Origin: a virus
Length of the DNA stretch: 64,000 nucleotides
Direction: 5' to 3' (one strand)
Virus record (IMG/VR): IMGVR_UViG_3300003267_000287
Span: 8,155 to 72,154 of that record
Shown piece by piece: positions 12,376-50,687 of the stretch. The notes under the pieces are model-generated. The model was not told where the DNA came from and did not search any database. It saw only the letters and a program-made list of their open reading frames with translations. Numbering within the stretch: the stretch's first letter is position 1; each line of letters begins with the position of its first letter. Position numbers and translations under genes: made by a program.

Positions 12376-12452
12376 TGGAGGCGACGGCGGGATTCGAACC
12401 CGCGAGTAGAGGTTTTGCAGACCTCCGTGTTGAACCGCTTCACCACGTCGCC
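12376..12452 (-). tRNA. tRNA-Cys(GCA)
   Basis: Cloverleaf with GGCGACG/CGTCGCC stem, anticodon loop CTGCAAA, TTCGAAT, U73 and CCA. Confidence 0.95.
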
Positions 12453-18817: not shown

Positions 18818-19303
18818 TCAGCTCCTGCTTGCCCAGCGCCTCGCGGGTGGTGTGACCTCATCCCCATGTGAAATCAGCCAGCGCGCAACGAGTCTGGACT
18901 CCAGCGTCATCTTTCGGGTAAACCGGACGTGAAAGATCTCTAGGGCCGTCCGCGAAGCCCAGCTGTTCTCGGCGTAGATCTGCATGGCTCGACTCAGTGA
19001 GTCGAAATGGAGGATCCGGTCTCGAGCGACGAGTCGCAGGAAGTTCCGGAGTCCGTGACGAGTCACGCGCCGGGGTGTCCAGTGGACGGTGCCCCGAGCG
19101 ACGACTCCCTTCTCGTGCTCCTCAATCCCGTAGCCGCAACCCTCCTCGGGGCCCGGGCAGAACCGGGCCCCAATGGCGGCGGCAACGTCGGCGTAGGACC
19201 GCACGTAGCCTCCATGGATGAGCCAGTACTGACGGATCTGTGTCAGCCAGTCCTGACGGTGATCAACGAGACGGAGTCCGGGTGAACGGAGCATGTCCGA
19301 CAC
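18818..19303 (-). CDS. Hypothetical protein
   Basis: Intact ORF in the operon; more A/T-ending codons than average. Confidence 0.45.
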   Translation of the reverse strand: MSDMLRSPGLRLVDHRQDWLTQIRQYWLIHGGYVRSYADVAAAIGARFCPGPEEGCGYGIEEHEKGVVARGTVHWTPRRVTRHGLRNFLRLVARDRILHFDSLSRAMQIYAENSWASRTALEIFHVRFTRKMTLESRLVARWLISHGDEVTPPARRWASRS

Positions 19304-19769
19304 TCGTCGCCATCTCAGTCAGTTCCTTGGACGGGACAATCAGCCCGTTCTGTAGGAACGAATAGGTAGTAGCCCCCTCGGCCACGATCAGGCTGTCCTC
19401 GAAGAACAGTCCGGCGGCGTTCGCCGCGTCCATGACCTTGTGGACCATGTCCACGTCGTACATCGTTGGCTGGGCATCACCCGACGGGTGGTTGTGGGCG
19501 ATCTGGAAACGATCAGCTCCTGACAACAGGACCGCAGTCAACAGCGCAGGGATCGGAACCGCTACCTCGTGGTAGCCACCGACGGCGACCTCGGTCACCG
19601 TTCGGATTTGCTCGATCCCGTCATAGGCAACGGCCCACAGCCGTTCCTGGTTGGAGTCGGTCAGGCCCCACTCTCGGAAGAGACAGTCAAGATCCGCAGC
19701 AGTGGGCATCTCCTTCTCGATGCGCAATTGCACGCTGGCAAAGCGATCGACGTTCATCGCAATCTCCAT
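19263..19769 (-). CDS. RadC-type JAB domain protein
   Basis: QE...AHNHPSGDAQPT..D...D.LIV. Confidence 0.85.
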   Translation of the reverse strand: MEIAMNVDRFASVQLRIEKEMPTAADLDCLFREWGLTDSNQERLWAVAYDGIEQIRTVTEVAVGGYHEVAVPIPALLTAVLLSGADRFQIAHNHPSGDAQPTMYDVDMVHKVMDAANAAGLFFEDSLIVAEGATTYSFLQNGLIVPSKELTEMATSVGHAPFTRTPSR

Positions 19770-23282: not shown

Positions 23283-24419
23283 TCAGTCGAGCCACTTGAT
23301 GTCAGGGACGTCGAACGCGTCGGGCACGACCGGACGCGCCTCGGGCAGCTCGTCGTCGGCGGGCATGTTCTCGAGTTCGGCGATCGCCTCGTCACCGACG
23401 AACAGCGAGCCGATGTCGACCGGCGTGTCCTCGGCGTCGGCATCGACGACCCCGCCGTGCTGGGCGGCGAACGCCTTGCTGAGCGCCTCCATCGCTGCGT
23501 CGAGGCTGCCGTCACCGGAGCCGGACACGATGAAGCCGCCCGCTCGCTCGTCGGTGCCGGGCATCGCCTCGATCTCGACGTCGTCGACCAGGCTGCGGAT
23601 CGACCGCATCAGCTCCTGGATCTCGGGCGGGACTGAGTCCAGCATCTCCTCGAGATCCTGCTTCCTGCGCTCGGCGTCCATCCGATCGAGGATCGTGTCG
23701 AGCTCACGCTTGACGGCAATCGCTCGTCGGGTGAGTTCGAGGCCCGCCCCGAGCTCGTCGGGATTCGTCGGATCGAACTCGTTGCGCTGACGGATCAGCT
23801 CGATGTACTCCGCCCGCAGCTCGTGGGCTCGGGCGCCATCCTCGGTGTCCGTCGGGACGCGCAGTCGGATCCACGCCCGCTCCTCCGCGGCCTCCAGGAT
23901 CTCCGGGTGACCGTGGATCGGAACGGCCATCCGATCGTCGTCGTCGACCGGCTGACTGGCGTGGCGGTTGACCGCGGCGAATCCGCCGAACCGGCGGTTG
24001 TCGTCGAGCGGGTCGCCTTCCCACGTCGCGAAGTCGATCTCGGCGAGCATCCGGGCGACCATGTGGTCCTTCTCGCTGGCCTGCCAGAAGCCCTCGGGAT
24101 GCTTGTGCATCACGAGATAGGCGTCGGCGCCGTGCTCATCGAGTCGCAGGCCGAGCATCGCGAGCTGGTAGATGTACTCGGTGCCGATCTCGGAGACGCC
24201 GTCGAGGAAGATCTCCTGGCCGACCCGGGCGACGGCATAGTCGACGACTCGCAGCGTCCAGCCGCCATCCTCGTCGTGTGCGACGTCTTTGACCCAGATG
24301 ACGACGTCGACCTCCTCGTCCTCGGGGAACTCGTCGAACACCTCCTCGTAGAGGGCGTCGATCAACTCCTTGGGATGGTTGGTCCTCATGTCGACCTCCA
24401 TCCCGATCAAGCTGCCCAT
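23283..24419 (-). CDS. JAB/JAMM-motif protein with acidic C-terminal extension
   Basis: HKHPEGFWQASEKD matches H-x-H-x7-S-x2-D. Confidence 0.6.
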   Translation of the reverse strand: MGSLIGMEVDMRTNHPKELIDALYEEVFDEFPEDEEVDVVIWVKDVAHDEDGGWTLRVVDYAVARVGQEIFLDGVSEIGTEYIYQLAMLGLRLDEHGADAYLVMHKHPEGFWQASEKDHMVARMLAEIDFATWEGDPLDDNRRFGGFAAVNRHASQPVDDDDRMAVPIHGHPEILEAAEERAWIRLRVPTDTEDGARAHELRAEYIELIRQRNEFDPTNPDELGAGLELTRRAIAVKRELDTILDRMDAERRKQDLEEMLDSVPPEIQELMRSIRSLVDDVEIEAMPGTDERAGGFIVSGSGDGSLDAAMEALSKAFAAQHGGVVDADAEDTPVDIGSLFVGDEAIAELENMPADDELPEARPVVPDAFDVPDIKWLD

Positions 24420-26946: not shown

Positions 26947-28557
26947 TCAGTCGAGCTTGGCCTGCGACTGACTGTCCTCCCGGCCACGCCGGGACTTCTC
27001 GTTGCCGCTGGTCGACGGGAGATCGGCGGCACCGGTCTCGGCCAGTGCCTGGCTGTTCCACGCGACGCTGTCCGGATTGTGCGGGCTGGGCTGGTAGGCC
27101 GCGGGCTGGATCGGGAACGCAGCCACGGTCGGGACCGCGCCCAGCTCGGCCGCCTTGACGATCGCGGTGCTGATCGTGTCGGCCGCCTTGACCGTCTCGG
27201 ACCGCCGATCCTCGGGCTTCGGGGTCAGAAGGGCAACGTGGTCCTCCATCTCCTGGACCGTGGCCAGCAGGGCGTCGTCGGTCACCTCCAGCTGCCCCTC
27301 GGGCGGGGTCATGCTGATGGCGTACAGCTTGGACCGCTCGACGATCTCCCGGATCACGGCCGGGATCTTCCCGGCGAGGTGCTCCTTCGACTTCGTGAGC
27401 GGGTTGTCGGCAGCGATCAGGCCCCGACCGTACTGGCGGGCGAGGATCGCGGCCGCCTCGGCATCGGGCGGCGGGATGTGGATGATCGCGTCGAGACGAC
27501 CGGGCCGCAGCAGGGCGGTCGTGATCTTCTCGAGCTCGTTCGTCGTGAGCACGATCATCAGCGCCGTGCCCTTCGACTCCACGCCGTCGATGACGTTCAG
27601 GACGTCGTCGATCTCGGTCGTCCGGTTGTCACCCCGCATGATCCGGTCGATGTCCTCGCAGAAGAGGACGACGCCGTGGTTGCGGTCGCCGTACTGGCGA
27701 GCCAGCCGGACGACCTCGGCGAGCTCGGTGATGTCCTTCGCCTCGACGTACGTCCAGCCGTGGCGGACGGCGAGGTTCGCCGTCTTGGTGGCGATCATCG
27801 TCTTGCCGGTGCCGAACGGACCGGCGAGGAGGACGCCGCGCTTGAGCGGGATGCCGTGGGCGACGACCCGATCGGTCTGCTCGATCGGGGTGAAGATGTT
27901 GGTCTGGACCGAGACGGCGGTGCGCTCGGGCAACACCAGCTCGTTGACCACCGACGGATCGAGATCGAGGAACTCGGGCTCGGGCATCGGCAGCCGGTTG
28001 CCGTGGTTGTCGAAGAGCTTGACCCGGAACGCGGTGTTCCGGTAGATCGAGCGCTCCCGGACGTGCTTCTTGACCAGCTCGACGATCTCGTTGACGACGG
28101 GCTCGTAGAGCCGCTTCACCTTGCCGGTGAGCTGGAACACGATCCGTCCGTCGTCCTTCTCGGTCACGCCGGACTGGAGGTAGCCGTCGCCGATGTTGGG
28201 CAGGGCGAACCGGCCCCACGGGACCTGCACGGTCTTGCCGAGGGCGATCGGCACCGACAGCATCGCGGGCGGCTTCGGGCCGAAGAAGCCCGGCGTCGGG
28301 ACGCTGTTCGCCCAGCCGTACTTCTCGGTCAGCACCTGGTTCAGGGCGTAGGCCGCCTCGAACACGAACGGCGCCTCGATCTCAGCGACCGGCACGAACT
28401 CCTGGTTCTCGTACTCGAGTCGCGCGTGGATGACCTTGTCGACCTGCTCGAGGTTCATGGTCTCGGGGATGATGATCGCTTCCCCGTGCTTGCGAACCTC
28501 GACGACGTCACGAATGGCCTTCTTGGCCTGACCCATCTGGTCGAGCGTCTGTCCCAT
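26947..28557 (-). CDS. AAA+ ATPase (classical AAA clade)
   Basis: RGVLLAGPFGTGKT (Walker A), LFCEDID (Walker B), TTN...ALLRPGRLD (second region of homology). Confidence 0.9.
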   Translation of the reverse strand: MGQTLDQMGQAKKAIRDVVEVRKHGEAIIIPETMNLEQVDKVIHARLEYENQEFVPVAEIEAPFVFEAAYALNQVLTEKYGWANSVPTPGFFGPKPPAMLSVPIALGKTVQVPWGRFALPNIGDGYLQSGVTEKDDGRIVFQLTGKVKRLYEPVVNEIVELVKKHVRERSIYRNTAFRVKLFDNHGNRLPMPEPEFLDLDPSVVNELVLPERTAVSVQTNIFTPIEQTDRVVAHGIPLKRGVLLAGPFGTGKTMIATKTANLAVRHGWTYVEAKDITELAEVVRLARQYGDRNHGVVLFCEDIDRIMRGDNRTTEIDDVLNVIDGVESKGTALMIVLTTNELEKITTALLRPGRLDAIIHIPPPDAEAAAILARQYGRGLIAADNPLTKSKEHLAGKIPAVIREIVERSKLYAISMTPPEGQLEVTDDALLATVQEMEDHVALLTPKPEDRRSETVKAADTISTAIVKAAELGAVPTVAAFPIQPAAYQPSPHNPDSVAWNSQALAETGAADLPSTSGNEKSRRGREDSQSQAKLD

Positions 28558-37107: not shown

Positions 37108-37353
37108 ATGAAGTTTCGAGTTGTTCCGGCCGACATGCGGAACGAGGTCATCGCGCCCCCGCGCAGCACCCGTTCCCCGTGGGTCGCTGCCCTGATTGAT
37201 GGGCAGACCATCGTCATCTCCAAGGAGGACCGCCGGAAGATCGGCGGCAACACCAAGACGCTCCGGAACCACGGGCTCCGTCTCCGTTCGGGCAGGATCT
37301 CGGAAAGCGAGGTCGTCGTCTGGGCTGAGCCTCTCGAGCCGGAGAGCAAGTGA
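37108..37353 (+). CDS. Basic small protein
   Basis: Downstream of the promoter; GAGGA RBS. Confidence 0.5.
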   Translation: MKFRVVPADMRNEVIAPPRSTRSPWVAALIDGQTIVISKEDRRKIGGNTKTLRNHGLRLRSGRISESEVVVWAEPLEPESK

Positions 37354-37808
37354 TGGCTGAGGAGCCGTACGAGTGGGGCGCCGAGATCGTCGGCAAGGGT
37401 CGCCCCACCGACGACGGCCCCAGCCAGATCGAACTGAGCCACGATCGCGTGGCCTGCGCCCGTCACAACGAACCCTTCCGCGATGACTGGCCCAACGGCT
37501 ACGGGGTCTTCGCGACCGAGCTCGCCACCGAGGTCCTCAACGATGAGGAGTTCATCGAGGCCGTCGATGGCGAGGTCGAGCAGATCGAGGCGGCGCTCGA
37601 CGAGAAGCCGCTCTGCGAGCGAGTCAGCAAGACAACGCTGATCTACATCTACACCAAGACCGAGATCGGCAGCCTTGACCGCTGCGCGATGTGTCGCGAG
37701 GTTCGCCTGGGCACGCCGTACACGATGCGGATCAGCCCGAGCGACACCCGGCGCGTCCCGCATCTGTGCTTCACCTGCATCGTCTACAACCTCCGCGGCG
37801 CGAACTAA
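37350..37808 (+). CDS. Cys-rich hypothetical protein
   Basis: C..H, PLC, CAMC and HLCFTC motifs. Confidence 0.55.
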   Translation: MMAEEPYEWGAEIVGKGRPTDDGPSQIELSHDRVACARHNEPFRDDWPNGYGVFATELATEVLNDEEFIEAVDGEVEQIEAALDEKPLCERVSKTTLIYIYTKTEIGSLDRCAMCREVRLGTPYTMRISPSDTRRVPHLCFTCIVYNLRGAN

Positions 37809-37891: not shown

Positions 37892-38251
37892 ATGAAGTAC
37901 GTCTACTCCGAGGGGGTGATCGCCCGATCCAGGAGGAACCCCAAGGTCCAGAGCGGTGAACTGCCGCTCATCACCCCCACGATCACCAGGGAAGAGTGGA
38001 TCCCCTGGCGATACTGGCTCTACCGAATCGCGAGAGCCTACTTCCACACGGTCATGCGATGGGTACCACCGTTGCGTGGCTGGATCGACCGCCGTTGGTG
38101 TACCGGTCTCGAGATCGCCCTGTATCGGCCGAACGACCATACGACGATCCCCATCGACCCCACGTTCATCCGCCCGGACCGCCGGGCTCGTTACGAGGAG
38201 TGGCTCCGTGACCGAGAAGCACGTTCTCCGGATCCTGGACCGAACGGGTGA
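37892..38251 (+). CDS. Hypothetical protein
   Basis: Intact ORF in the operon. Confidence 0.4.
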   Translation: MKYVYSEGVIARSRRNPKVQSGELPLITPTITREEWIPWRYWLYRIARAYFHTVMRWVPPLRGWIDRRWCTGLEIALYRPNDHTTIPIDPTFIRPDRRARYEEWLRDREARSPDPGPNG

Positions 38252-38441
38252 CACCGCTGTCGCCTGGACCCCCGGGACCAAGACCGAAGAGGACGAGGCT
38301 GAAAAGAAGTTCGACGAGATGGCGAAGCAGGGCTACCTGATGTTCGCCGTCGAAGCCCCGGGCAAGACCCCCGAGCAGGTCCGCAAGTTCGATCCGAAGG
38401 CATTCGAGATCGTCGCGGTCCCGCAGTTCCGTGGTGGCTGA
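38208..38441 (+). CDS. 77-aa protein ending in Gly-Gly
   Basis: GAGGAG RBS with GTG at 38208; ends FDPKAFEIVAVPQFRGG*. Confidence 0.7.
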   Translation: MTEKHVLRILDRTGDTAVAWTPGTKTEEDEAEKKFDEMAKQGYLMFAVEAPGKTPEQVRKFDPKAFEIVAVPQFRGG

Positions 38442-39255
38442 TCGCCTCCGGAAGGCACTCGGGCTCAAGACCGTGGAGGAGAAGTTCGAAGAAGCTCTCC
38501 AGGAGACCCAGCGGCAGGTCGAAGCGCTGGAAACGGCGCTTCGAGAAGCCGAGCTGATCCTCGCCCGCGCCCTGGGAGAAACCACGGACGACCGCGAGGA
38601 TTCCTTCTACGGAGCCGATCGCTGGGAGCGGGCCCGGCTCCGCGCTCGGACGAAGAAGAACGAGCTTGCCAATCTTCGGGCCGAGAAGCTGCTCCGTGAT
38701 CACCTGACCGAGGGTCAGGTCGCGGAGTGGAACCGGAATCGGCGGATCGCCGTGAAGGGCAAGACCATGCTCTACACGATCAAGGAGAACGGCCAGGTCT
38801 TCGCCAATCGGAAGTTCCTCTGCACCTACCCGACGGTCGCGATCCCTCCGGCCGACCAAGTCCTCGCCACCAAGCTCCTGATCGAAGGCAACGAAGAGGA
38901 GTTCCTCGAGAACGCCAACCCCGACAGCTCGTACAGCAAGCGATTGACCGTCGACGGCGAGCTCGTGCGTCGTGAGTACAAATTCCGCGATTCCACCTTG
39001 CTGTTCAACCCCAACGGCTACTTCACCCCGGACATGTACCGCCAGTACGCCAACGATCTGCGCCAGATCTATGGCGTGGGCACCGCCACCACCAACACCA
39101 CCATCAACACCACCACGACCACCACCCCGGGGACTGGCACGCTCTTCGCCACCAACGCCCAGATGACGGGTCTCCGACCCTACCTAGCGCCGACCGTCCG
39201 GACCAACGCGACCACCACCGAGATCGAGTTCACTGCCCGATACGAAGAAACCTAG
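38431..39255 (+). CDS. Coupled partner of the GG protein (coiled coil, Cys-containing domain, Thr-rich tail)
   Basis: Overlaps the GG codons; LCTYP...P..D.VLA.KL.IE.NEEEFLENAN. Confidence 0.65.
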   Translation: MVADRLRKALGLKTVEEKFEEALQETQRQVEALETALREAELILARALGETTDDREDSFYGADRWERARLRARTKKNELANLRAEKLLRDHLTEGQVAEWNRNRRIAVKGKTMLYTIKENGQVFANRKFLCTYPTVAIPPADQVLATKLLIEGNEEEFLENANPDSSYSKRLTVDGELVRREYKFRDSTLLFNPNGYFTPDMYRQYANDLRQIYGVGTATTNTTINTTTTTTPGTGTLFATNAQMTGLRPYLAPTVRTNATTTEIEFTARYEET

Positions 39256-39490: not shown

Positions 39491-39649
39491 TTGGCGAAGA
39501 AGCCCCGCTCGCCGTACGTTGACGAGCTGCGGGACAAGAACAACATCAGCATCGAAAACCACATCGAGATGACCAATCGGCTGGTCAAGGCCGGTCACCA
39601 GGGGATTCACAATCGCCCGGGCCCGCCGAAGCCGAAGAAGTCGGGGTAG
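39491..39649 (+). CDS. 52-aa basic peptide overlapping the 5' end of tRNA-Val
   Basis: TTG start; MAKKPRSPYVDELRDKNN...KKSG*; high-GC3 codons. Confidence 0.45.
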   Translation: MAKKPRSPYVDELRDKNNISIENHIEMTNRLVKAGHQGIHNRPGPPKPKKSG

Positions 39650-39714
39650 CTCAGCGGAAGAGCATCTGGTCGACATCCAGAAGGTCCCAGGTTCAATCCC
39701 TGGTCCCGACACCA
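39640..39714 (+). tRNA. tRNA-Val(GAC)
   Basis: Cloverleaf, anticodon loop TCGACAT, CCA end. Confidence 0.9.
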
Positions 39715-39717
39715 TCT

Positions 39718-39793
39718 GCCGAAGTAGCTCAGCTGGTAGAGCATCGCTTTCGTAAAGCGGCGGTCGTCGGTTCGAGTCCGACCTTCGGCTCCA
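39718..39793 (+). tRNA. tRNA-Thr(CGT)
   Basis: Cloverleaf, loop TTCGTAA, CCA end. Confidence 0.95.
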
Positions 39794-39795
39794 AG

Positions 39796-39869
39796 TGGGG
39801 AGTGGCCAAGAGGTACGGCGCCACGCTTTGGACGTGGGATCGAAGGTTCGAGTCCTTCCTCCCCAGCCA
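39796..39869 (+). tRNA. tRNA-Gln(TTG)
   Basis: U1-A72 pair, loop CTTTGGA, GCCA end. Confidence 0.95.
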
Positions 39870-39877
39870 CATTAGAA

Positions 39878-39974
39878 CCGGACGGACAAGGCTTTGGCAG
39901 GTGATCACCGAGTGGGACGTGACCATGAACACGGGCAGCTCGGGCCTAGTCCTGGTGGGTAGCGAGTGGTCCGG
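39878..39974 (+). ncRNA. Candidate structured RNA between tRNA-Gln and tRNA-fMet
   Basis: CCGGAC/GTCCGG closure and long irregular stem with G-U pairs. Confidence 0.35.
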
Positions 39975-39979
39975 ATCAT

Positions 39980-40058
39980 CGCAGCGTAGAGGAGTCTGGT
40001 TGTCCTCGTCGGGCTCATAACCCGAAGATCGCGGGTTCGAATCCCGCCGCTGCAACCA
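39980..40058 (+). tRNA. Initiator tRNA-fMet(CAT)
   Basis: C1:A72 mismatch, GGG/CCC anticodon stem, loop CTCATAA. Confidence 0.95.
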
Positions 40059-40060
40059 AC

Positions 40061-40136
40061 CCGCCCGTGGCTCAGTGGATAGAGCATCGGGTTCCGGACC
40101 CGAAGATCGCAGGTTCGAGTCCTGTCGGGCGGGCCA
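40061..40136 (+). tRNA. tRNA-Arg(CCG)
   Basis: Cloverleaf, loop TTCCGGA, GCCA end. Confidence 0.95.
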
Positions 40137-40137
40137 A

Positions 40138-40212
40138 GGGCCGGTAGCTCAACGGTAGAGCAAGGGTCTCTTAAACCCTAGGTTGAGGGTTCGAGCCCCT
40201 CCCGGCTCACCA
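40138..40212 (+). tRNA. tRNA-Lys(CTT)
   Basis: Cloverleaf, loop CTCTTAA, ACCA end. Confidence 0.95.
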
Positions 40213-40292
40213 CATACCCTCCGCATCGGGCCTGATCGGAGGTACGAGACGGTGGTACTTCTTGCGAGGATGTGCCACCGTCTCGGCTCGTT

Positions 40293-40368
40293 CGGGGTGT
40301 AGCTCAGCTGGAAGAGCGTCTGCTTTGGGAGCAGAAGGTCGCCGGTTCGAACCCGGCTTCCCCGACCA
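40293..40368 (+). tRNA. tRNA-Pro(TGG)
   Basis: C1-G72 pair, loop TTTGGGA, ACCA end; one U:U in the acceptor stem. Confidence 0.9.
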
Positions 40369-41648: not shown

Positions 41649-41669
41649 GGTGTGTCTGGAGGGTCTATC

Positions 41670-42032
41670 GTGCGACACGCCACCACAGTCCGGACGGCAT
41701 TCGAGGCCGGACACTCGGTGGACGGACATTCGATGTGCGGGTGGGTGGGACATGGTCATCACTGGGAAGTCGAGGTCACCGTTGCGGGGGGCTTGGATCC
41801 CAAGAAGGTCTTGGTGGTGGACCACGGCGAGCTTGCCGAAGCGGTCCGCCGAATCGGTCAGGAACTTGATGGCCACAGCCTCAACGACATGCTCCCCGGA
41901 GTCGTCTCCACGCCCGAAGGCGTGGGACTCTATTTCAAGGAACGACTAATCCTCGACTGGCCGCTCATCAGCGCGATCCGCGTCGCGATGACGCCGAACA
42001 TCAACGTCACGATCACGATGGAGACCAGATGA
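41670..42032 (+). CDS. queD: QueD/PTPS-like T-fold protein
   Basis: F.AGH, C....HGH.W.VEV.V.G, VVD, LD...LND and TPE motifs. Confidence 0.75.
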   Translation: MRHATTVRTAFEAGHSVDGHSMCGWVGHGHHWEVEVTVAGGLDPKKVLVVDHGELAEAVRRIGQELDGHSLNDMLPGVVSTPEGVGLYFKERLILDWPLISAIRVAMTPNINVTITMETR

Positions 42033-42244
42033 GCGTCGTCTTCACCTGTGAATGCGGTCGGCGGACCACCGAGCCGTACATCATCAGGAACGTGAAGATG
42101 TGCGTGATCTGTGCGGACGAGATCCGCCCGGAGGTTGTCGACAGCCGCGAGCGCTACTACCAGAAGCGCTACGGCACCCAGCTCAAGCACTCGCCGGGTT
42201 TCGAGGGAGCGAGCTTTGACCACGGCAAGCGCACTAGTCGTTGA
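42029..42244 (+). CDS. Small zinc-finger protein
   Basis: CECG...CVICA; ATGA overlap. Confidence 0.5.
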   Translation: MSVVFTCECGRRTTEPYIIRNVKMCVICADEIRPEVVDSRERYYQKRYGTQLKHSPGFEGASFDHGKRTSR

Positions 42245-42863
42245 GCCGATCTGGCTGTCGCCAGCGGTCATCAGTCCGAACCCGTGGAACCCGAACGTCA
42301 TGGATCCCGACATGCTCGAGTACGCCCGAGCGTCGATCCAGAAGTTTGGCTTCGTCGATCCGGTCACCTGCCGCCATCTGGGCGAGGACCTCTACCAGAT
42401 CATCGACGGCGAACACCGCTGGCGGATCGCCCAGGAGATGGGGCTCGAGCTCATCCCGGTGATGAACCTCGGGCCGCTCGCCGACTCGATCGCACAGCAG
42501 CTGACCATCGTCCTCAACGAGACTCGAGGGCAGGCCAATCCGGAGAAGCTGGGCCGCCTTCTCCGGGATCTGATGGCCGTCGAGACCAAGGAGTCCTTGC
42601 TCTCGACCCTGCCGTACACGCGAGAGGCGCTCGACCGGCTGACGGGTCTTCCGTCCATGACGTGGGAGGGGTTGGACCGCCCCCAGCGACCCACTCTTCC
42701 GGCCGAGCGCCCCTCCGCGTGGGTCGAGCGGACCTACCGAATGCCAAAGGAGTCGGCCGCCGTGATTGATCAGGCAATCGCCAAGGTCCGCGATGAGGAG
42801 CCCCAGGACGTGTCGGACTGGCAGGCGCTCGAGCTCATCGCGGCGGACTTCCTCGGAGGCTGA
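42216..42863 (+). CDS. ParB/Srx-domain protein
   Basis: PNPWNPN.M.....SI..FGF.DP.....IIDGEHRW...N..RG. Confidence 0.85.
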   Translation: MTTASALVVEPIWLSPAVISPNPWNPNVMDPDMLEYARASIQKFGFVDPVTCRHLGEDLYQIIDGEHRWRIAQEMGLELIPVMNLGPLADSIAQQLTIVLNETRGQANPEKLGRLLRDLMAVETKESLLSTLPYTREALDRLTGLPSMTWEGLDRPQRPTLPAERPSAWVERTYRMPKESAAVIDQAIAKVRDEEPQDVSDWQALELIAADFLGG

Positions 42864-43321: not shown

Positions 43322-43861
43322 GTGACCGTCCGCAAGCACGACTACCGCAACCTGGAACGCGAGTACATCACGACCGATATCAGCATCCGGGCCCTCTGCC
43401 GCAAGCATGGAATCAAGGGCTACAGCTCGGTCGCCCAGTTCGCTCGGGAGAACGGCTGGGAGGAGAAGCGAGCCCGGATCCAGGGCCGCGCCCAGGACAA
43501 GCTGACGGAACGGGTCTCGGACCAGATCGCGGAGGCTGAAGCCTCGCTCATCGAGACCGTTCGCTCGGAGTGGATCACGGTCATCCGGGCCGCGACCTAC
43601 AAGTTCGCCGAGGATCTGAAGGACCCGTCCTATCGGATCCGCGTCGACGACCTCATCCGCCTGATCGAGAAGGGCCTGGTCCTCCTCGGTGAACCGAGCG
43701 ATCGGACAGAGGAGCGCCATCTTGCACTCACCGGAACCCTCGAGGGACTGGGACCCGACTTCTTCCGACGACTGGCTGAAAGCACTCGACCCGTCAAGTC
43801 TGTCGGACCAGGATCGGGAGATCCTCCACAGCTGGGCGCTGAGAAGCCTCGCCCGAACTGA
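43322..43861 (+). CDS. Terminase small subunit
   Basis: N-terminal HTH (EYIT..ISIR.L..KHG...A..NGW), directly upstream of and overlapping TerL. Confidence 0.7.
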   Translation: MTVRKHDYRNLEREYITTDISIRALCRKHGIKGYSSVAQFARENGWEEKRARIQGRAQDKLTERVSDQIAEAEASLIETVRSEWITVIRAATYKFAEDLKDPSYRIRVDDLIRLIEKGLVLLGEPSDRTEERHLALTGTLEGLGPDFFRRLAESTRPVKSVGPGSGDPPQLGAEKPRPN

Positions 43862-45188
43862 CGTCTTCGCGTTCGGCGAGTACGTCTTCGGCTACGACGC
43901 CGCGGCCCACCATCGCGAGATGGTCGACGCGATCAACGCCGCCATCTCGACGCGGACCAACACGGTCATCCTCGAGCCCCGCGGTGGCGCGAAGACGACC
44001 TGGGGCAACACGATCAACCTCACCAAGCTGATCGCCGACAACCCCGACATCCGGATCGGCCTGGTCTCGAACACCGCCAAGCAGGCCAACGACTTCAGCC
44101 GGGCGATCCGCTGGACGCTCGAGTCGAACCCGAAGATGCACGAGGTCTACGGCAACCTCGTGTCGACCTCGAAGTGGACCGACGTCGAGTGGCTCCGGGC
44201 TGAGAGCCGCTGGCACGGCTCCAAGGACGTCACGCTGTACGCGGCGGGCGCAGGCGGCGCGATCATCTCGAAGCGATTCGACGTGATCCTGTGCGACGAC
44301 ATTCTCGACGAGGAGAACTGCGCCAACATTGAGCAGCGCGAGAAGATCGAGAACTGGTTCTTCAAGACGCTGATCCCGTGTCTCGTCCCAGATGGTGTGG
44401 TGATTGTTCTCGGCACCCGCTGGGCCGAAGAGGATCTGTACGAACGCCTGTCGACCCCGGTCGATCGCGGCGGCAAGGGCTGGCAGCTCCTGACCCGCAA
44501 GGCGCTCATCGAGCACCCCGACGGCGAGCTCGAGAGCTACTGGCCCGAGCACTGGCCGGTCGAGACGCTGCTCCAGAAGAAGATCGAGCTCGGGACGGCG
44601 CTCTTCTCGTGCGCCTACCAGAACGACATCTCGGGCCTGATGGCCGGGAACGTCTTCCGCAAGGAGTACTTCCAGTACTTCGACATGCTCGATCCGGACA
44701 AGAACTACACGATCCGGATGGGCGTCGACCTCGCCTCCTCAGAGAAGGAGCGGGCGGACTACACCGCGCGGGTCACGACGGCTGAGGACGACGAGGGCAA
44801 CTTCTACGTCCTATCGGTCGCGCGCGACAAGCGCGAGACGCACCACGCCGAGTTCGTGAACGACGGCTTCATGGCCTATCCGAACATGAACCTGGTGATC
44901 TGCGAGAGCCAGCAGTTCCAGTCGACCCTGATCCAGGAGGTCATGCGGGACTACCCGCGGATCCCGATCGAGGGCAAGAAGTCGGACGTCGACAAGGTGA
45001 CCCGGGCCCGGGCCGTCGCCGCCAAGTTCGAGGGCCACAAGATCTTCCTCCGCCGAACCCTCAAGGACTCCGACTTCGAGCGGGAGCTGCTGAGCTTCCC
45101 CAAGGGCCACGACGACATGGTCGACGCCCTCGGCTTCTCGATGGACCTTGGAGGCGGCGGCTTCATCTTCGGGAGCCTCCGCCGATGA
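43689..45188 (+). CDS. Terminase large subunit (start may be TTG 43722)
   Basis: PRGGAKTT, ILCDD, GTRW, YQN, GVDLA, DYTA, FPKGHDDMVDA. Confidence 0.92.
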   Translation: MNRAIGQRSAILHSPEPSRDWDPTSSDDWLKALDPSSLSDQDREILHSWALRSLARTDVFAFGEYVFGYDAAAHHREMVDAINAAISTRTNTVILEPRGGAKTTWGNTINLTKLIADNPDIRIGLVSNTAKQANDFSRAIRWTLESNPKMHEVYGNLVSTSKWTDVEWLRAESRWHGSKDVTLYAAGAGGAIISKRFDVILCDDILDEENCANIEQREKIENWFFKTLIPCLVPDGVVIVLGTRWAEEDLYERLSTPVDRGGKGWQLLTRKALIEHPDGELESYWPEHWPVETLLQKKIELGTALFSCAYQNDISGLMAGNVFRKEYFQYFDMLDPDKNYTIRMGVDLASSEKERADYTARVTTAEDDEGNFYVLSVARDKRETHHAEFVNDGFMAYPNMNLVICESQQFQSTLIQEVMRDYPRIPIEGKKSDVDKVTRARAVAAKFEGHKIFLRRTLKDSDFERELLSFPKGHDDMVDALGFSMDLGGGGFIFGSLRR

Positions 45189-45733: not shown

Positions 45734-45927
45734 GCGAGGTCGTCTTCCGCGACGGGAAGCGTGAGGTCCCGAACCATCTGGCTGCGTTGATGAGCGAGCT
45801 CGACACCTACAAGCTGACCTACGAGGAGGCGGTCGCCGCCGCCAACAAGAAGCTCGTGTCGGATCACCTGGACAAGACGTTCGGGAAGATCGTCTCCCAG
45901 CACTTCGAGAACTGGCGGAGCCGATGA
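45730..45927 (+). CDS. Hypothetical protein
   Basis: ATGA overlaps on both sides. Confidence 0.55.
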   Translation: MSEVVFRDGKREVPNHLAALMSELDTYKLTYEEAVAAANKKLVSDHLDKTFGKIVSQHFENWRSR

Positions 45928-47261
45928 GTTGGATTGGCGAAGTCTGGAAGGCGGCGACCCGTCAGTCCAGTCCGAAGAACGTCCCGGCCTCGTCCGCGCT
46001 CGTCATGCAGGAGCGTGGCCGGGTCGCCAAAGCGAACGTCCAGCTCTTCCGTCACTGGGCTGAGCATTCGGAGTGGATCCGAGCGGCGATCAACGTCCGC
46101 AAGAACCAGGTCAGCTCGGCCGAGTGGGACATTGTCCCGTTCGATCCCCAGAAGCCGTACAGCGAAACGCTCAAGAACCAGATCAAGCAGATCTTCGACC
46201 GTCCCAACCCGTCAGCCGACAGCTTCCGCTCGTTCGTCGAGCCGGTTCTCGAAGACGTCCTGGTGCTCGATGCGGGCGTGGTCGAGAAGGTCAAGACGCT
46301 CCGCGGACAGGTCGCCCAGCTGTGGCCGGTCGATGGCGGGAAGATCCGCGTCAACTCGCTCTGGGACGGCGGAGAGGAGCCCCGGTACTACTGGTATCCG
46401 GACGGCTTCCTCCGGGCGGCGTTCAAGAACGAGGACATGCTCTACGTGATGGCCAACCCGGCGACGTACCGGGTGGTTGGCCTCGCTCCGCTCGAGACCC
46501 TGAAGCTGACCGTTGACGCGGAGCTGTCGGGGCATTCATACAACCACCGTCAGGTCGTGAACGCGGCCCCGGATGGAATGCTCGATCTCGGCGAGGGGGC
46601 TCGTCCGGAGCAGGTCGAGCAGTTCAAGTCCTATTGGTTCAACGAGGTCGCAGGCAAAGGCGCGATGGCCTTTGTCGGCGGAACGAAGAACGCCAAGTTC
46701 ATCCCGTTCCGCAGCTCGAACCGGGACATGCAGTTCCTCGAGTGGCAGCAGTACCTCGTTCGCAAGATCTGCGCGGTGTTCGGTCTCTCCCCCCAGGACC
46801 TCGGTCTGAGCTTTGATGTCAACCGAGCCAACGGCGAGGTTCTCCAGGAGAACACCGACGACCGCGGTATCCGACCCCTGATGGGCCTCCTCCAGGACTA
46901 TTTCACGCGGGAAATCGTCTGGGACGAGGGCTTCGGCGGATCGGACAACAACCTTGCCTTCCGGTTCACGCGCCTCAACCTGCGCGACTCGTTGGCTCAA
47001 GCCCAGGTCCAGAAGATCCAGCTCGCGGGTCTTCCGACACGCTCGATCAACGAAGTCCGCAAGGAGCAGGGCCTCGAGCCGTGGGGTCCCGAGTTCGACA
47101 TCCCGATGGTCGTGACCCCGACCGGCGCCGTCCGGCTCGACAAGGTTCCGACCGCGCAGGACGTCGTTGATGCAAAGCAGAAGCCGCCCGCCGGTTCGAC
47201 AGGAGCGCCCGCTGAGGGACGAGCTTCCTCCGGGTCGAGCAGCAAGGGCATCGAGGAGTAA
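45924..47261 (+). CDS. Portal protein, HK97 family
   Basis: PNP...F, LWPVD, GL.P, DMQFLE, IC.VFG..P..LG, NEVR...GL.P. Confidence 0.92.
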   Translation: MSWIGEVWKAATRQSSPKNVPASSALVMQERGRVAKANVQLFRHWAEHSEWIRAAINVRKNQVSSAEWDIVPFDPQKPYSETLKNQIKQIFDRPNPSADSFRSFVEPVLEDVLVLDAGVVEKVKTLRGQVAQLWPVDGGKIRVNSLWDGGEEPRYYWYPDGFLRAAFKNEDMLYVMANPATYRVVGLAPLETLKLTVDAELSGHSYNHRQVVNAAPDGMLDLGEGARPEQVEQFKSYWFNEVAGKGAMAFVGGTKNAKFIPFRSSNRDMQFLEWQQYLVRKICAVFGLSPQDLGLSFDVNRANGEVLQENTDDRGIRPLMGLLQDYFTREIVWDEGFGGSDNNLAFRFTRLNLRDSLAQAQVQKIQLAGLPTRSINEVRKEQGLEPWGPEFDIPMVVTPTGAVRLDKVPTAQDVVDAKQKPPAGSTGAPAEGRASSGSSSKGIEE

Positions 47262-47862: not shown

Positions 47863-48543
47863 GTGTCGCTCGCCGTGCTCTGCCCCTCACGGGGTAGACC
47901 GGACAAAGCGGTCGAGTGCTATCGGTCGTTCCTCGATACGAAGCACTCGGCCGACACCGAAATGCTGTTCGTCCTCGATGCCGACGACGACTTCGATTCG
48001 TATGCTGGGCTTCCATCGATCGTCGTGATGCCGACCGGTCGTCGCGGGATGACCGATCCGGTGAACACCGCCATCCGGAGCCTGTGGGATCGCTATGACA
48101 TCGTCGGGTTCGTGGGAGACGACCATCGATTTCGGACCTCCGGCTGGGACCGCGTCTTCGTGGACCAGCTCGGACGGGCCGGTGGGGGCCTCGTTTACGG
48201 TAACGACAAGAACTGGCGGGACGGAGAGATCCCAACCCAGATCTTCGGTTCGGCCGCCATCTGGCGAGCCCTCGGCTGGATGGCGCTTCCAGCTTGTCAG
48301 CACCTCTATCTCGACAACGCCTGGCGTCACATCGGGGAGTCCCTGGAGCGGCTCTATTACTTCCCGGACGTGATCATCGAGCACATGCACCCGGCCTACG
48401 CGAAAGCGGAGTGGGACGAAGGCTATCGAGCTGTGAACAGCTCGGAGATGTACAACCACGATCGCGCGGCGTTCGAAGACTGGGTCGCTGGCTCCGCCTC
48501 GGAGGATCTCGACCGTGTCCGACGCGCCCTCGATCTCGCCTGA
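47863..48543 (+). CDS. Glycosyltransferase, GT-A fold
   Basis: LAVLCPSRGRP, VLD.DD, GDDH, HLY.DN, IEH.HP. Confidence 0.8.
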   Translation: MSLAVLCPSRGRPDKAVECYRSFLDTKHSADTEMLFVLDADDDFDSYAGLPSIVVMPTGRRGMTDPVNTAIRSLWDRYDIVGFVGDDHRFRTSGWDRVFVDQLGRAGGGLVYGNDKNWRDGEIPTQIFGSAAIWRALGWMALPACQHLYLDNAWRHIGESLERLYYFPDVIIEHMHPAYAKAEWDEGYRAVNSSEMYNHDRAAFEDWVAGSASEDLDRVRRALDLA

Positions 48544-49312
48544 TCTGGCGATCATCACCGAGCAATCAGGGATCCCCGTTCCCAACCCCACGCCGTACAG
48601 CACGATCACCGTCGCGCTCGTGGCCTGGAACGAGGAAGCGCGCCTCGAGCCGCTCCTGATCTATCTCCGACCGTGGTTCGAGAAGATCGCGGTCGGCGTC
48701 CAGGCCAGCACCGATCGGACAGCGGAGATCGCGTCGGAGTACGCCGACATCCTGGTCTTCGATGATCACCGGGGCTTTGGCGATGCGACCTTCGGGCCGC
48801 GGCTCCTGCCCCAGGTCCGATCAGAGTGGACCCTCAAGGTGGACTGCGATGAGATCCCCAGTGCTGATCTTCTGGACTCGCTCGGATCTGCGATCTGGCG
48901 AGCCGATCAGATCGGGCTCGACGGCTTCTGGATCCCCTTCCGGAGCGCCGTCGACGGCCAGGAGTACGAGGAGCAGCACAGCCATCTCCGCCTCTTTCGA
49001 ACGCGAATTGGCTGGCCTGGAACGCTCCATTCGCGGCCGATGACCCAGAACACCGAGCTCTGGAACGTCGGGTATTTCCGCCACGATCGGACGCTCGACG
49101 AAATGATGCAGGACTACCTGCGGTACTGGCATGTCGGGCGGGGACACTCGAGCTGGGAAGCTCACAACGCCGCGATGATGTTTCACGCCTGTCGCGGCAC
49201 CGCCGAAGCCAAGGGCTGGGACTACGTTCAGTCGTTCAGCTGGTGGCCCGAGGTGGAGTCCATCGCCTTCACCTCAGAGAAGCCGTGGCTCACGGCAGAA
49301 GGAGTTCACTAA
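48515..49312 (+). CDS. Glycosyltransferase family 2
   Basis: I.V..VA.NEE..L, STDRT.EIA, W.L.VDCDE, RLFR, LH. Confidence 0.85.
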   Translation: MSDAPSISPDLAIITEQSGIPVPNPTPYSTITVALVAWNEEARLEPLLIYLRPWFEKIAVGVQASTDRTAEIASEYADILVFDDHRGFGDATFGPRLLPQVRSEWTLKVDCDEIPSADLLDSLGSAIWRADQIGLDGFWIPFRSAVDGQEYEEQHSHLRLFRTRIGWPGTLHSRPMTQNTELWNVGYFRHDRTLDEMMQDYLRYWHVGRGHSSWEAHNAAMMFHACRGTAEAKGWDYVQSFSWWPEVESIAFTSEKPWLTAEGVH

Positions 49313-49638
49313 TGGCAGCTTCGATCGACATCGTCCCGGCGTCGGGCAGCGTTGTCTCGACGTCCTCGGCGTGCCGCGTGGAAGTGACCGGCGCTGATCA
49401 GAACGACGACAGCGCCTACACGACGGCGGTCTATCCCCAGAGCCCCGAGATGCGCTACTACCTGACGTTCGAGAAGTCCTCGACGATCCTCGGCAAGAGC
49501 TACGTCTTCGGGGTCAACGAGGACGGTGACCACACCTTCAACAACTACATCTTCCCATCCAGCGGGTCGTGGACCATCCGGCTCAACGACGCGTCGGATG
49601 ACTCGTCGGTCGCGACGAAGTCCGTCACCGTTTCCTGA
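49312..49638 (+). CDS. Small Ig-like virion protein
   Basis: Ser/Thr-rich; FP.SG.WTI.L...V.VS. Confidence 0.5.
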   Translation: MAASIDIVPASGSVVSTSSACRVEVTGADQNDDSAYTTAVYPQSPEMRYYLTFEKSSTILGKSYVFGVNEDGDHTFNNYIFPSSGSWTIRLNDASDDSSVATKSVTVS

Positions 49639-49643
49639 CTCGC

Positions 49644-49680
49644 GGGCCCGCTGGGTTCCTCCTGCTCAGCGGGCCCACTT
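49644..49680 (+). terminator. Hairpin/terminator
   Basis: GGGCCCGCTGGG...CTCAGCGGGCCC with a weak U tail. Confidence 0.4.
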
Positions 49681-49718
49681 GATAGGAGGACGGGAGGTCG
49701 GCCGATGAGGGAGGCCGG

Positions 49719-50687
49719 ATGGACGGTCCGATGAGCAACGTCCTGGTGACAGGCGCCGCCGGGTTTCTTGGGCGTTGGTTTGTTCGAGCGCACCTGAAGC
49801 GCGGCGACTTCGTCATTGGCGTCGATGATCTGTCGAACCCGCACTCCTATTGGCCAGACGAGCTTGATCCACTTCGCCGCTACCAACTCGATGCAGCGAC
49901 CTGGTTCGGGCGTGGGATCGGCCTCGCTCCCCAGGACCAGATCGGGCTGGTCAAGTGGGACATCGTCTACCACTTCGCGGCCCCTGTCGGCGGCCGCCTG
50001 AAGATCGAGTACGACCCGCTGTTCAACGCGAACAGCCTGGCCCTCGACTCACTGTTCTTCCGCTGGGCGGTCGAGCGAGCCGCGATCGCGGTCTATCCGT
50101 CATCGTCGGCGGTCTACGGAGTGGCCCTTCAGGAGGGGTCGGGCCAGCTTCTCCGCGAGGGCGACTTCAACCCAGAGGACGCCAGCTGGATGGCGCCTGA
50201 CGAGATCTACGGTCTGACCAAGCTGGTCGGCGAATATCTCGCCTGGAAATCCGCGAAGTACGGCCTGAATACGCTGTGTATTCGCCCGTTCAGTGGATAT
50301 GGACCGGAGCAATCGCTCGAATATCCGATCCCGTCCATCCTGAAGCGCGCCAAGAACCGCGAGGACCCCCTCGTTGTCTGGGGAACCGGTGAACAGCGGC
50401 GCGACTTCATCTACGTCGAGGACCTGGTCAACGCCACGCTCGCTCGACTCGATGCCGGAGTCCGGGGCTACCGGGCGATGAACATCGGCACCGGCAAGGG
50501 CGTCTCGTTCCGCCAGATCGCGCAAGCCGCGGCCAAGATCGCGGGCTACAGCCCGCAGATCCAGGTCGACCTGTCGAAACCGGCTGGGGTCAGTAGCCGA
50601 TATGGCTCACCGGCCCTCATGCACCGCTTCTACACTCCATCTGTTTCCCTGGAAGAGGGCTTGGCCAGGGTGATGGAGGGGCTGTAA
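49719..50687 (+). CDS. NAD-dependent NDP-sugar epimerase/dehydratase
   Basis: VTGAAGFLG, HFAA, SSSAVYG, YGLTK, R.F..YGP, RDFIYV.D, NIGTG. Confidence 0.92.
   Translation: MDGPMSNVLVTGAAGFLGRWFVRAHLKRGDFVIGVDDLSNPHSYWPDELDPLRRYQLDAATWFGRGIGLAPQDQIGLVKWDIVYHFAAPVGGRLKIEYDPLFNANSLALDSLFFRWAVERAAIAVYPSSSAVYGVALQEGSGQLLREGDFNPEDASWMAPDEIYGLTKLVGEYLAWKSAKYGLNTLCIRPFSGYGPEQSLEYPIPSILKRAKNREDPLVVWGTGEQRRDFIYVEDLVNATLARLDAGVRGYRAMNIGTGKGVSFRQIAQAAAKIAGYSPQIQVDLSKPAGVSSRYGSPALMHRFYTPSVSLEEGLARVMEGL

Follow-up and report, generated by a model that had tools for sequence, protein, structure and literature searches.

Two overlapping genes of a tailed phage, one for a 77-residue protein that ends in Gly-Gly and one for a 274-residue partner with a single cysteine (Cys131), form one obligate, translationally coupled module of an unnamed family. 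They lie in a stretch of 64,000 nucleotides (the window), comprising bases 8155-72154 of the 72,154-bp virus record IMGVR_UViG_3300003267_000287, which CheckV rated complete; the G+C content of the phage is 64.6%. The terminal Gly-Gly and the cysteine were conserved family-wide, and the coupling and the linkage of the two genes were likewise shown. We tentatively propose, at a probability of about 0.4, that an E1 enzyme of the MoeB/ThiF type from the host activates the carboxylate of the Gly-Gly end, which is then passed to Cys131, and that the partner serves solely as its acceptor, with variable ends that determine where it acts.

Ubiquitin-like chemistry in bacteria and phages has been tied to immunity only recently and, to our knowledge, the known systems of ubiquitin-like proteins (Ubls) all come as operons of E1, E2 and protease. 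Here a very large two-gene family keeps a terminal Gly-Gly and a lone invariant cysteine on a partner predicted to bind it, without the remaining machinery. If the chemistry is covalent, the acceptor fold would be new, and the pair would mark a minimal path leading from sulfur carriers to the tagging of proteins. Otherwise, the pair would show another use of a conserved Gly-Gly tail. The pair is directly testable, with at least one cultured strain, an Actinomadura isolate (L106), carrying both genes.

Coupling of the genes and conservation of the Gly-Gly and the cysteine

A first-pass annotation, made from the letters of the window, had described a ubiquitin-sized open reading frame (ORF) terminating in Gly-Gly, a partner gene beginning inside its last codons, and a single cysteine in the partner. 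All three descriptions held. The reading frame of the small gene was verified (Table 1), and its product ends in EIVAVPQFRGG. The GTG start is supported because the homologs of 77 residues, which open with MTEKH or MNEKH, begin at the equivalent position. The partner gene starts at a GTG that gives an overlap of 11 nt, and an alternative start lies at 38434. The only cysteine of the partner is Cys131, within the motif FLCTYP.

The small protein is a member of a large, previously unnamed family. A word-based search found 25 close relatives with 42-99% identity. In an alignment of the query with 24 relatives, from which the window's own 99% cluster was left out, all 25 sequences ended exactly in Gly-Gly. 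The profile built from this alignment matched 2259 proteins at an expectation value (E) ≤1e-3, and 434 at E≤1e-10, among 1.84 billion representatives. Of the best 150 of these 2259, counted as clusters at 50% identity, 130 ended exactly in Gly-Gly, nine in AG, RG or KG, and ten had 1-11 further residues after Gly-Gly; one had a 120-residue extension. Ubl precursors likewise have residues beyond Gly-Gly in their sequence, as these 11 of 150 do. A few members were tandem duplications of the predicted beta-grasp unit (P0055, P0076, P0102 and one at phage locus L001), and these terminated in RG, KG, AG or PG rather than in Gly-Gly. The identity of family sequences to the window's protein was 32-65%. 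A free Gly-Gly after the last strand, as in Ubl modifiers and sulfur carriers, was therefore found to be conserved both in the close homologs (25/25) and among the best 150 family representatives (130/150).

No known family accounted for the small protein. Pfam gave no match to it at E≤1, ThiS/MoaD (PF02597) included, and none of 80 family members matched Pfam or NCBIfam at E≤0.01. No PHROG model matched the family, and its profile found no Ubl among its matches to PDB sequences at E≤10. PADLOC gave no match at E≤0.01 for four small proteins and four partners taken from the window, phages and bacteria. The pair thus appears undescribed, as the first-pass annotation had suggested, in that neither protein matched a known family in the Pfam, NCBIfam, PHROG and PADLOC searches. 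A full-text literature search yielded no account of such a pair, and neither did passages of a beta-grasp survey (PMC1949818).

The partner was modelled with AlphaFold2 from a 28-row alignment. It opens with two long helices (residues 15-53 and 58-90), and its core (about residues 80-165) had a predicted local distance difference test (pLDDT) score of 93-98. The predicted elements of the core are a helix (94-103), four strands (105-109, 114-118, 122-125 and 128-131) and two helices (140-153 and 155-161). This core of about 90 residues appears to be a new domain. Cys131 and Leu88 were invariant in the alignment of 28 partners, and Pro139, Asp142 and Asn163 were conserved at 90% or more. Cys131 was the most conserved residue of the partner. 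It was kept in all 28 partners and in 88 of 89 distinct cores, of which 34 came from the window, phage and metagenome loci and 55 from bacteria. The sole core without it belongs to a partial ORF truncated by the end of its contig (L010), where the alignment is doubtful. His-Pro or Tyr-Pro follows Cys131 in most cores, and Pro134 was present in 67 of 89.

Searches with the partner led to no known family either. The word-based homolog search found only the partner itself, both with the whole protein and with the core alone. Pfam gave no family at E≤1, MoaE included, and 31 cores matched only six scattered families at chance level at E≤10. Foldseek gave no match to the partner structure; a wider structure listing was largely taken up by coiled-coil matches to residues 1-54, with one weak RWD row. 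The only profile matches among PDB sequences were designer propellers, which reached the partner through one hairpin and were rejected. In the Atlas, the partner found hypothetical proteins only.

The regions flanking the core varied. Most phage partners (L009-L043) had a Thr/Ser-rich N-terminal region of 40-100 residues with repeated W-x-x-W, while in the window's clade a Thr/Asn-rich region stood at the C-terminus instead. Partners from Chloroflexota were about 150 residues long and opened with a hydrophobic segment, which we read from the sequence as a transmembrane helix. Acidimicrobiia partners had a different N-terminal region.

Some partners showed further features at their ends. Candidate fusions, judged by sequence reading, joined the core to a region with a Walker-A-like GxPGSGK[ST] motif at two Acidimicrobiia loci, and to a phosphoesterase-like region at one phage locus. 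The C-terminus was Ala-Ala in 11 of 28 phage partners, and also in both GenBank phage partners, compared with one of 55 bacterial partners. C-terminal Ala-Ala is typical of ssrA-type ClpXP degrons, and the partner end recalls such a degron or another small-residue end for processing.

The two genes were found side by side wherever the context was taken, in GenBank phages, IMG/VR contigs and metagenome contigs of close relatives. A tblastn search of 50,697 phage records with two family members gave matches in two uncultured phages only, of 197 kb and 595 kb. Further loci were collected with a degenerate DNA pattern for the end of the small gene (FDP-x-A...I...GG-stop). These loci are uninformative on Gly-Gly conservation because the pattern itself requires GG-stop. 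All 35 viral loci so found encoded a family member. In 27 of them the core profile placed the partner core immediately after the small gene, in the same orientation. Seven of the eight misses were loci that ended less than 1250 bp past the small gene, and only L024 had room but no partner. The first possible partner start fell between -8 and +6 nt of the small-gene stop in 25 of 28 cases, under a rule that accepts the earliest start codon from a point 45 nt ahead of the stop onwards and so favours closeness.

An earlier alignment-based search for related loci in bacterial genomes had given no match. The same DNA pattern found 89 stretches in bacterial genome contigs. Our counts cover 80 of them, of which 75 encode a family member. 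The partner core was adjacent in 55 of these 75 loci (54 downstream, one upstream), and seven loci were cut short. Linkage is therefore conserved in both phages and bacteria. Loss of the terminal Gly-Gly, of the partner cysteine or of the linkage would have counted against the first-pass annotation; all three proved conserved, far beyond chance. The bacterial carriers were soil bacteria, mostly Chloroflexota (Ktedonobacterales, Chloroflexia and Dehalococcoidia), Acidimicrobiia or other metagenome-assembled genomes of Actinomycetota, and several loci lay on Mb-size contigs. A Tautonia isolate carried the small gene at a locus too short to show a partner. One Chloroflexi assembly had four loci, and two others had two each. 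The phage framing of the first-pass annotation was accordingly too narrow: the pair is not phage-specific, and it also occurs among bacterial chromosomal housekeeping genes.

Predicted fold and complex

The AlphaFold2 model of the small protein, built on the 25-sequence alignment, had a pLDDT of 88.7. Its predicted order of strand-strand-helix-strand-strand-strand, followed by the tail, is that of the beta-grasp superfold. Nearly all rows listed by Foldseek were ubiquitin-fold domains (RA, PB1, UBX, NEDD8, ubiquitin, SUMO, DIX and FERM F1), with a best E of 0.015, a probability of up to 0.96 and template modelling (TM) scores of 0.34-0.46. A beta-grasp fold, which the first-pass annotation had not regarded as established, is thus favoured by the model and by Foldseek, with weak scores. 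The small protein appears to be a divergent beta-grasp protein; the predicted structure supports the fold class, not homology to any single Ubl family.

The two proteins were also predicted to form a specific heterodimer. The pair reached interface scores (ipSAE) of 0.78, 0.78 and 0.81, versus 0.00 for the best of three controls. Of 80 solved complexes, 58 attain this mark, as do 2 of 110 mismatched pairs; both counts are approximate here, because our own alignments were used. Agreement between the runs was at least 95% of contacts, with a pLDDT of at least 87 for the partner. We know of no like complex, so that a pass from predictor memory is unlikely. On the side of the small protein, the predicted interface comprised the first hairpin (residues 8 and 10-15), residues 42-57, residue 69 and the tail (71-77). 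The partner contributed helix 76-96, the loop 131-139 that starts at Cys131, Asp142, and helices 145-164 with Asn163 among their residues. In both families, then, the conserved positions fall within the interface of the model. Residue 74 of the tail touched partner residues 133-135 in the model, and the Gly-Gly tail is predicted to run along the Cys131 loop. The complex prediction, with its controls passed, thus placed the tail on the cysteine loop.

Genomic setting

The coordinates of the pair and of other features are collected in Table 1. The phage has no close phage record, as 6 kb of it gave no match to phage records by megablast. In the window the pair lies 5 kb upstream of the terminase and portal genes. 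In two IMG/VR contigs (L004 and L005) the order was reversed, with the pair between portal and terminase. The carrier phages ranged from 40 to 595 kb, and their neighbouring genes were mixed. Among 94 neighbour ORFs, Pfam recognized AAA (5), DUF6197 (3), caspase (2), RecA (2) and terminase (2), with single matches to portal, sortase, NUDIX and others. Ten neighbour ORFs in bacteria included response regulators, dehydrogenases, an ABC ATPase and similar proteins. Clustering of neighbour ORFs yielded no third conserved gene, since no family beyond the pair occurred in more than 9-10 loci.

Table 1. Coordinates of the gene pair, its parts and other features (window positions unless a locus or record is named)
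Feature	Locus or record	Position	Strand	Remark
Ribosome-binding site GAGGAG	window	38195-38200	+	7 nt before the small-gene GTG start
77-residue Gly-Gly protein gene	window	38208-38441	+	GTG start 38208; TGA stop 38439-38441; Gly-Gly codons 38433-38438
Partner gene, 274 residues	window	38431-39255	+	GTG start 38431, within the R-G-G codons of the small gene
Partner N-terminal long helices, about residues 1-90	window	38431-38700	+	predicted coiled coil; varies between relatives
Partner conserved core, residues 82-167	window	38674-38931	+	helix, four-strand meander, two helices; predicted small-protein binder
TGC codon of Cys131	window	38821-38823	+	only Cys of the partner; end of strand 4
Partner Thr/Asn-rich C-terminal region	window	39079-39255	+	low confidence; pLDDT below 50 at residues 219-252
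Upstream ORF, 119 residues	window	37892-38251		overlaps the small-gene start by 44 nt
Cys-rich protein	window	37350-37808		upstream of the pair
Relatives of the Cys-rich protein	L006; L008	342-851; 1280-1705		upstream of the pair
Seven tRNA genes (Val, Thr, Gln, Met, Arg, Lys, Pro)	window	39640-40368		directly after the pair
tRNA-Cys gene	window	12376-12452		away from the pair; eighth tRNA gene of the genome
QueD/PTPS-like gene	window	41652-42032		
ParB	window	42111-42863		
Terminase	window	43689-45188		
Portal	window	45924-47261		
Glycosyltransferase-like and epimerase/dehydratase genes	window	48515-50687		just past the portal region
RadC-like JAB	window	19263-19769	-	Pfam
ORF with JAMM-like motif HKHPEG..S..D	window	23283-24419		motif only, without Pfam match
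AAA ATPase	window	26947-28557	-	Pfam
ERF recombinase and PD-(D/E)XK nuclease	window		-	Pfam
AAA genes near the pair	L015; L016; L018; L019; L023	4413-5921; 3-1601; 4473-6200; 2736-4322; 8579-10306		
Adjacent ThiF and Prok-JAB genes	KX853510.1; LR756511.1; L041 contig	about 177.0-180.3 kb; about 280.7-282.4 kb; about 108.5-109.8 kb		
Tandem duplication of the small protein	L001	3815-4243		
Partners ending in Ala-Ala, GenBank phages	L001; L002	4261-5067; 4497-5273		
Partners ending in Ala-Ala, other phage loci	L009, L011, L013, L014, L016, L023, L026, L028, L029, L039, L041			
Candidate fusions of the core, Walker-A-like region	L053; L092	6834-8000; 1226-2596		Acidimicrobiia
Candidate fusion of the core, phosphoesterase-like region	L017	1283-2638		phage locus
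Small gene followed by a conserved multi-pass membrane protein	L076, L080, L096, L104			Chloroflexia or Ktedonobacterales

The first-pass annotation had set the pair beside two JAMM proteins and an AAA+ ATPase encoded elsewhere in the genome. The ATPase was confirmed by Pfam, as was one JAMM protein, a RadC-like JAB; the second showed only the motif. The RadC-like JAB lies 19 kb from the pair, and the ATPase 10 kb away on the opposite strand. We examined co-occurrence in 39 records with the pair, 11 of them rated at least 90% complete; the 39 contain near-duplicates, for example L004/L005, L018/L023 and L039/L040. Homologs of the ATPase were present in 8 of the 39 records and in 3 of the 11 complete genomes. 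AAA, ThiF, Prok-JAB and RadC (8, 3, 3 and 1 of 39 records) were rejected as linked partners, and the JAMM and AAA context drawn by the annotation did not consistently accompany the pair.

In five related loci, an AAA gene shared the strand of the pair at a distance of 1.2-3.1 kb, and a functional link is possible in the clade with adjacent genes. The ATPase has a conserved N-terminal domain and a weak resemblance to the IetA and TRIP13 models of PADLOC. Three large phage records carried adjacent ThiF and Prok-JAB genes, which may be a separate Ubl-type operon. Both positions are known in the two GenBank phages, and there about 60 kb separates these genes from the pair.

Other genes near the pair included an upstream ORF without a family in Pfam or PHROG. 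Within about 1.1 kb upstream of the pair, the window and two relatives also encode a Cys-rich protein with CP.HGEPFR..WP.G near its N-terminus and C..C...C..C-like motifs near its C-terminus, for which Pfam gave no family above threshold. Just past the portal region stand a gene resembling family-2 glycosyltransferases, by a weak match (E 3e-4), and a gene for an NAD-dependent epimerase/dehydratase. These two genes may serve sugar modification of the virion or of other Thr-rich proteins.

Readings of the pair and comparison with known systems

In the mechanism that we propose, translational coupling would lead to co-production of the two proteins. The small protein, with its free and flexible Gly-Gly tail, would bind the partner core and lay the tail along the Cys131 loop. 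A host-supplied adenylating enzyme of E1 type (MoeB/ThiF class) would activate the Gly-Gly carboxylate. Transfer of the activated Gly-Gly to Cys131 would then create a thioester, or an acyl-sulfur intermediate of a related kind, making the partner a dedicated E2-like acceptor. The ends of the partner would set the site of action, through Thr/Trp-rich and coiled-coil regions in phages and membrane-helix-like segments in Chloroflexota. What we infer here is the action of a host E1, the formation of the thioester and whatever target lies downstream.

Several results weigh against this proposal. The 72-kb genome gave no match to ThiF (PF00899), Prok-JAB or JAB/MPN at E≤1, so that no E1 is visible, as the first-pass annotation had remarked. 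Across the 39 records, ThiF was found in three and Prok-JAB in the same three, beside ThiF; RadC was found in one, below the cut-off, and all three were absent from the 11 complete genomes. No histidine was invariant near Cys131, either in the 28 partners or in the 89 cores. The structure scores for the beta-grasp fold were all under the usual significance. Thirteen of the 75 bacterial loci had room for a partner but none at E≤1e-3; in two of these the partner ORF was divergent or broken, and in four a conserved membrane protein stood in its place. Finally, an invariant cysteine and an invariant Gly-Gly are compatible with binding alone.

Binding alone is the basis of the reading as a purely non-covalent pair, a serious rival that we nonetheless find rather doubtful. 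The small protein would be an adaptor, chaperone or inhibitor, possibly toxin-antitoxin-like; the Gly-Gly tail and the cysteine would be just interface, and the ends of the partner would carry activity or location. The confident predicted heterodimer, the small upstream gene overlapping a larger downstream one, the multiple copies in single assemblies, the heterogeneous neighbours in phages and bacteria, the lack of a co-travelling E1 or JAB, and the putative fusions of the core to a P-loop ATPase-like or metallophosphatase-like region are all consistent with it. However, strict retention of a terminal Gly-Gly at 32-65% identity, together with precursor-like short extensions, is hard to explain by binding. 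The cysteine is the most conserved residue of the partner, though a cysteine is seldom needed in interfaces, and no known toxin or defence model was matched. The two proteins might instead handle sulfur in the manner of MoaD-MoaE or CysO-CysM, as a carrier and its partner: a host E1 and a sulfurtransferase would form a Gly-Gly thiocarboxylate, and the partner cysteine would use or relay the sulfur as persulfide or acyl-disulfide. Instead of a tagged protein, the product would then be a small molecule, tRNA or DNA bearing a thio modification. We regard this reading as unlikely, though it too is a serious rival. The small protein had no ThiS/MoaD match in Pfam at E≤1, nor did 80 members at E≤0.01, and no signature of MoaE, rhodanese, PP-loop or other sulfur enzymes was present in the partner. 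A cofactor enzyme would not be expected to have hydrophobic N-terminal segments, coiled coils or ends rich in Thr/Trp. Several copies also occur within one assembly. Still, a small Gly-Gly subunit encoded beside a larger subunit, with the E1 elsewhere, is the layout of MoaD/MoaE. In the predicted complex the tail docks on the partner, the bacterial pairs are chromosomal among metabolic genes, and ThiS was the nearest named cluster in the Atlas, at only 0.76. In addition, passages of PMC9574740 describe Urm1 as coupling Ubl conjugation with cysteine persulfidation.

Two further readings fit poorly because of the bacterial chromosomal copies. The first-pass annotation had offered a decoy for host E1/E2 defences, in which a mimic Ubl and a pseudo-E2 would soak up the host E1 or E2 of Ubl defence systems (Bil/Bub, or Cap2/Cap3 of the cyclic-oligonucleotide-based antiphage signalling system, CBASS). 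Such defence systems exist in bacteria, according to parts of PMC10557695 and PMC10097602, and the Ubl-like fold, the Gly-Gly and the variable, accessory-gene-like phage neighbourhoods would suit a decoy. This idea was weakened by the same pair in bacterial chromosomes, sometimes in several copies, on Mb-size contigs and next to housekeeping genes. The hydrophobic start of the Chloroflexota partner also fits it badly, a decoy would need no conserved cysteine partner of its own, and PADLOC showed no similarity to defence Ubls or E2s; we consider it very improbable. Hardly any more credible is a part in the virion or in morphogenesis, for instance as decoration protein or assembly factor, without enzymology. 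The neighbours of the pair are mainly non-structural and inconsistent, bacterial chromosomal pairs stand away from any phage genes seen, and no PHROG structural family was matched. In favour of a virion part are the location between portal and terminase in L004/L005, the 5-kb distance to these genes in the window, the terminase (two) and portal (one) matches among the 94 neighbour ORFs, and the Thr-rich tails that occur together with glycosyltransferase genes in the window phage.

The proposed transfer of an E1-activated Gly-Gly to Cys131 can be carried one step further, to a scheme that is bold and on balance improbable. The pair might be a minimal Ubl conjugation module without its own E1, E3 or protease, with an E2-type partner of new fold that has one catalytic cysteine, and with a borrowed housekeeping E1. 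It would tag proteins or envelope lipids, being held at the membrane in Chloroflexota and redeployed by phages to mark host or phage components, in one clade beside an AAA+ ATPase. If true, this would bridge the gap from sulfur carriers to genuine ubiquitination, and no tagging system of this sort would have been found encoded by phages before.

Comparison with known systems showed partial likeness to each of them. Type II toxin-antitoxin modules resemble the pair in gene layout, copy number per assembly and predicted binding only, and no toxin family was matched. Iyer, Burroughs and Aravind reportedly described in 2006 the phage lambda tail assembly proteins I (ubiquitin-like) and K (JAB plus NlpC). 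The likeness is a phage-encoded ubiquitin-fold protein, as predicted here. However, the lambda pair sits in a tail module with a JAB peptidase, whereas ours has no JAB, lies outside any tail module and is found in the chromosomes of bacteria as well. With MoaD-MoaE and other ThiS/MoaD-type carriers, the pair shares a Gly-Gly protein of about 80 residues, beta-grasp by prediction, beside a larger partner, with the E1 elsewhere; as in MoaD-MoaE, the tail would dock on the partner. It differs from them in the missing ThiS/MoaD signature, in a partner that is neither MoaE nor a known sulfur enzyme and has an invariant cysteine with variable hydrophobic or coiled-coil ends, and in being found in phages and more than once per assembly.

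Systems of a Ubl with an E2 (UBC/RWD), including Bil, Bub and CBASS Cap2, likewise join a Gly-Gly Ubl fold to a partner with one essential-looking cysteine. The predicted order of the partner core (helix, four-strand meander, helices) is reminiscent of E2, RWD and Atg3, and the structure listing had one weak RWD row. HPN, YPxxxP and HPC motifs belong to E2, RWD and Atg3, and the His/Tyr-Pro motif after strand 4 of the partner may be comparable to them. The catalytic cysteine of E2 lies in the flap that follows strand 4, and Cys131 stands at the end of strand 4 in the model. However, no E1, JAB or E3 travels with the pair, and the partner had no significant E2 match in structure or sequence. 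Its cysteine also precedes the His/Tyr-Pro motif, rather than following it as in E2. Urm1, SAMP and TtuB, which serve both as sulfur carriers and as protein modifiers with an E1 as their sole requirement, are similarly minimal, each consisting of a Gly-Gly beta-grasp protein with chemistry at a target cysteine and no E2 or E3; for Urm1, conjugation is coupled to cysteine persulfidation without either enzyme (passages of PMC9574740). Those proteins belong to the ThiS/MoaD/Urm1 family and have a dedicated E1, whereas the present pair has neither feature, and has instead one fixed, co-encoded cysteine partner.

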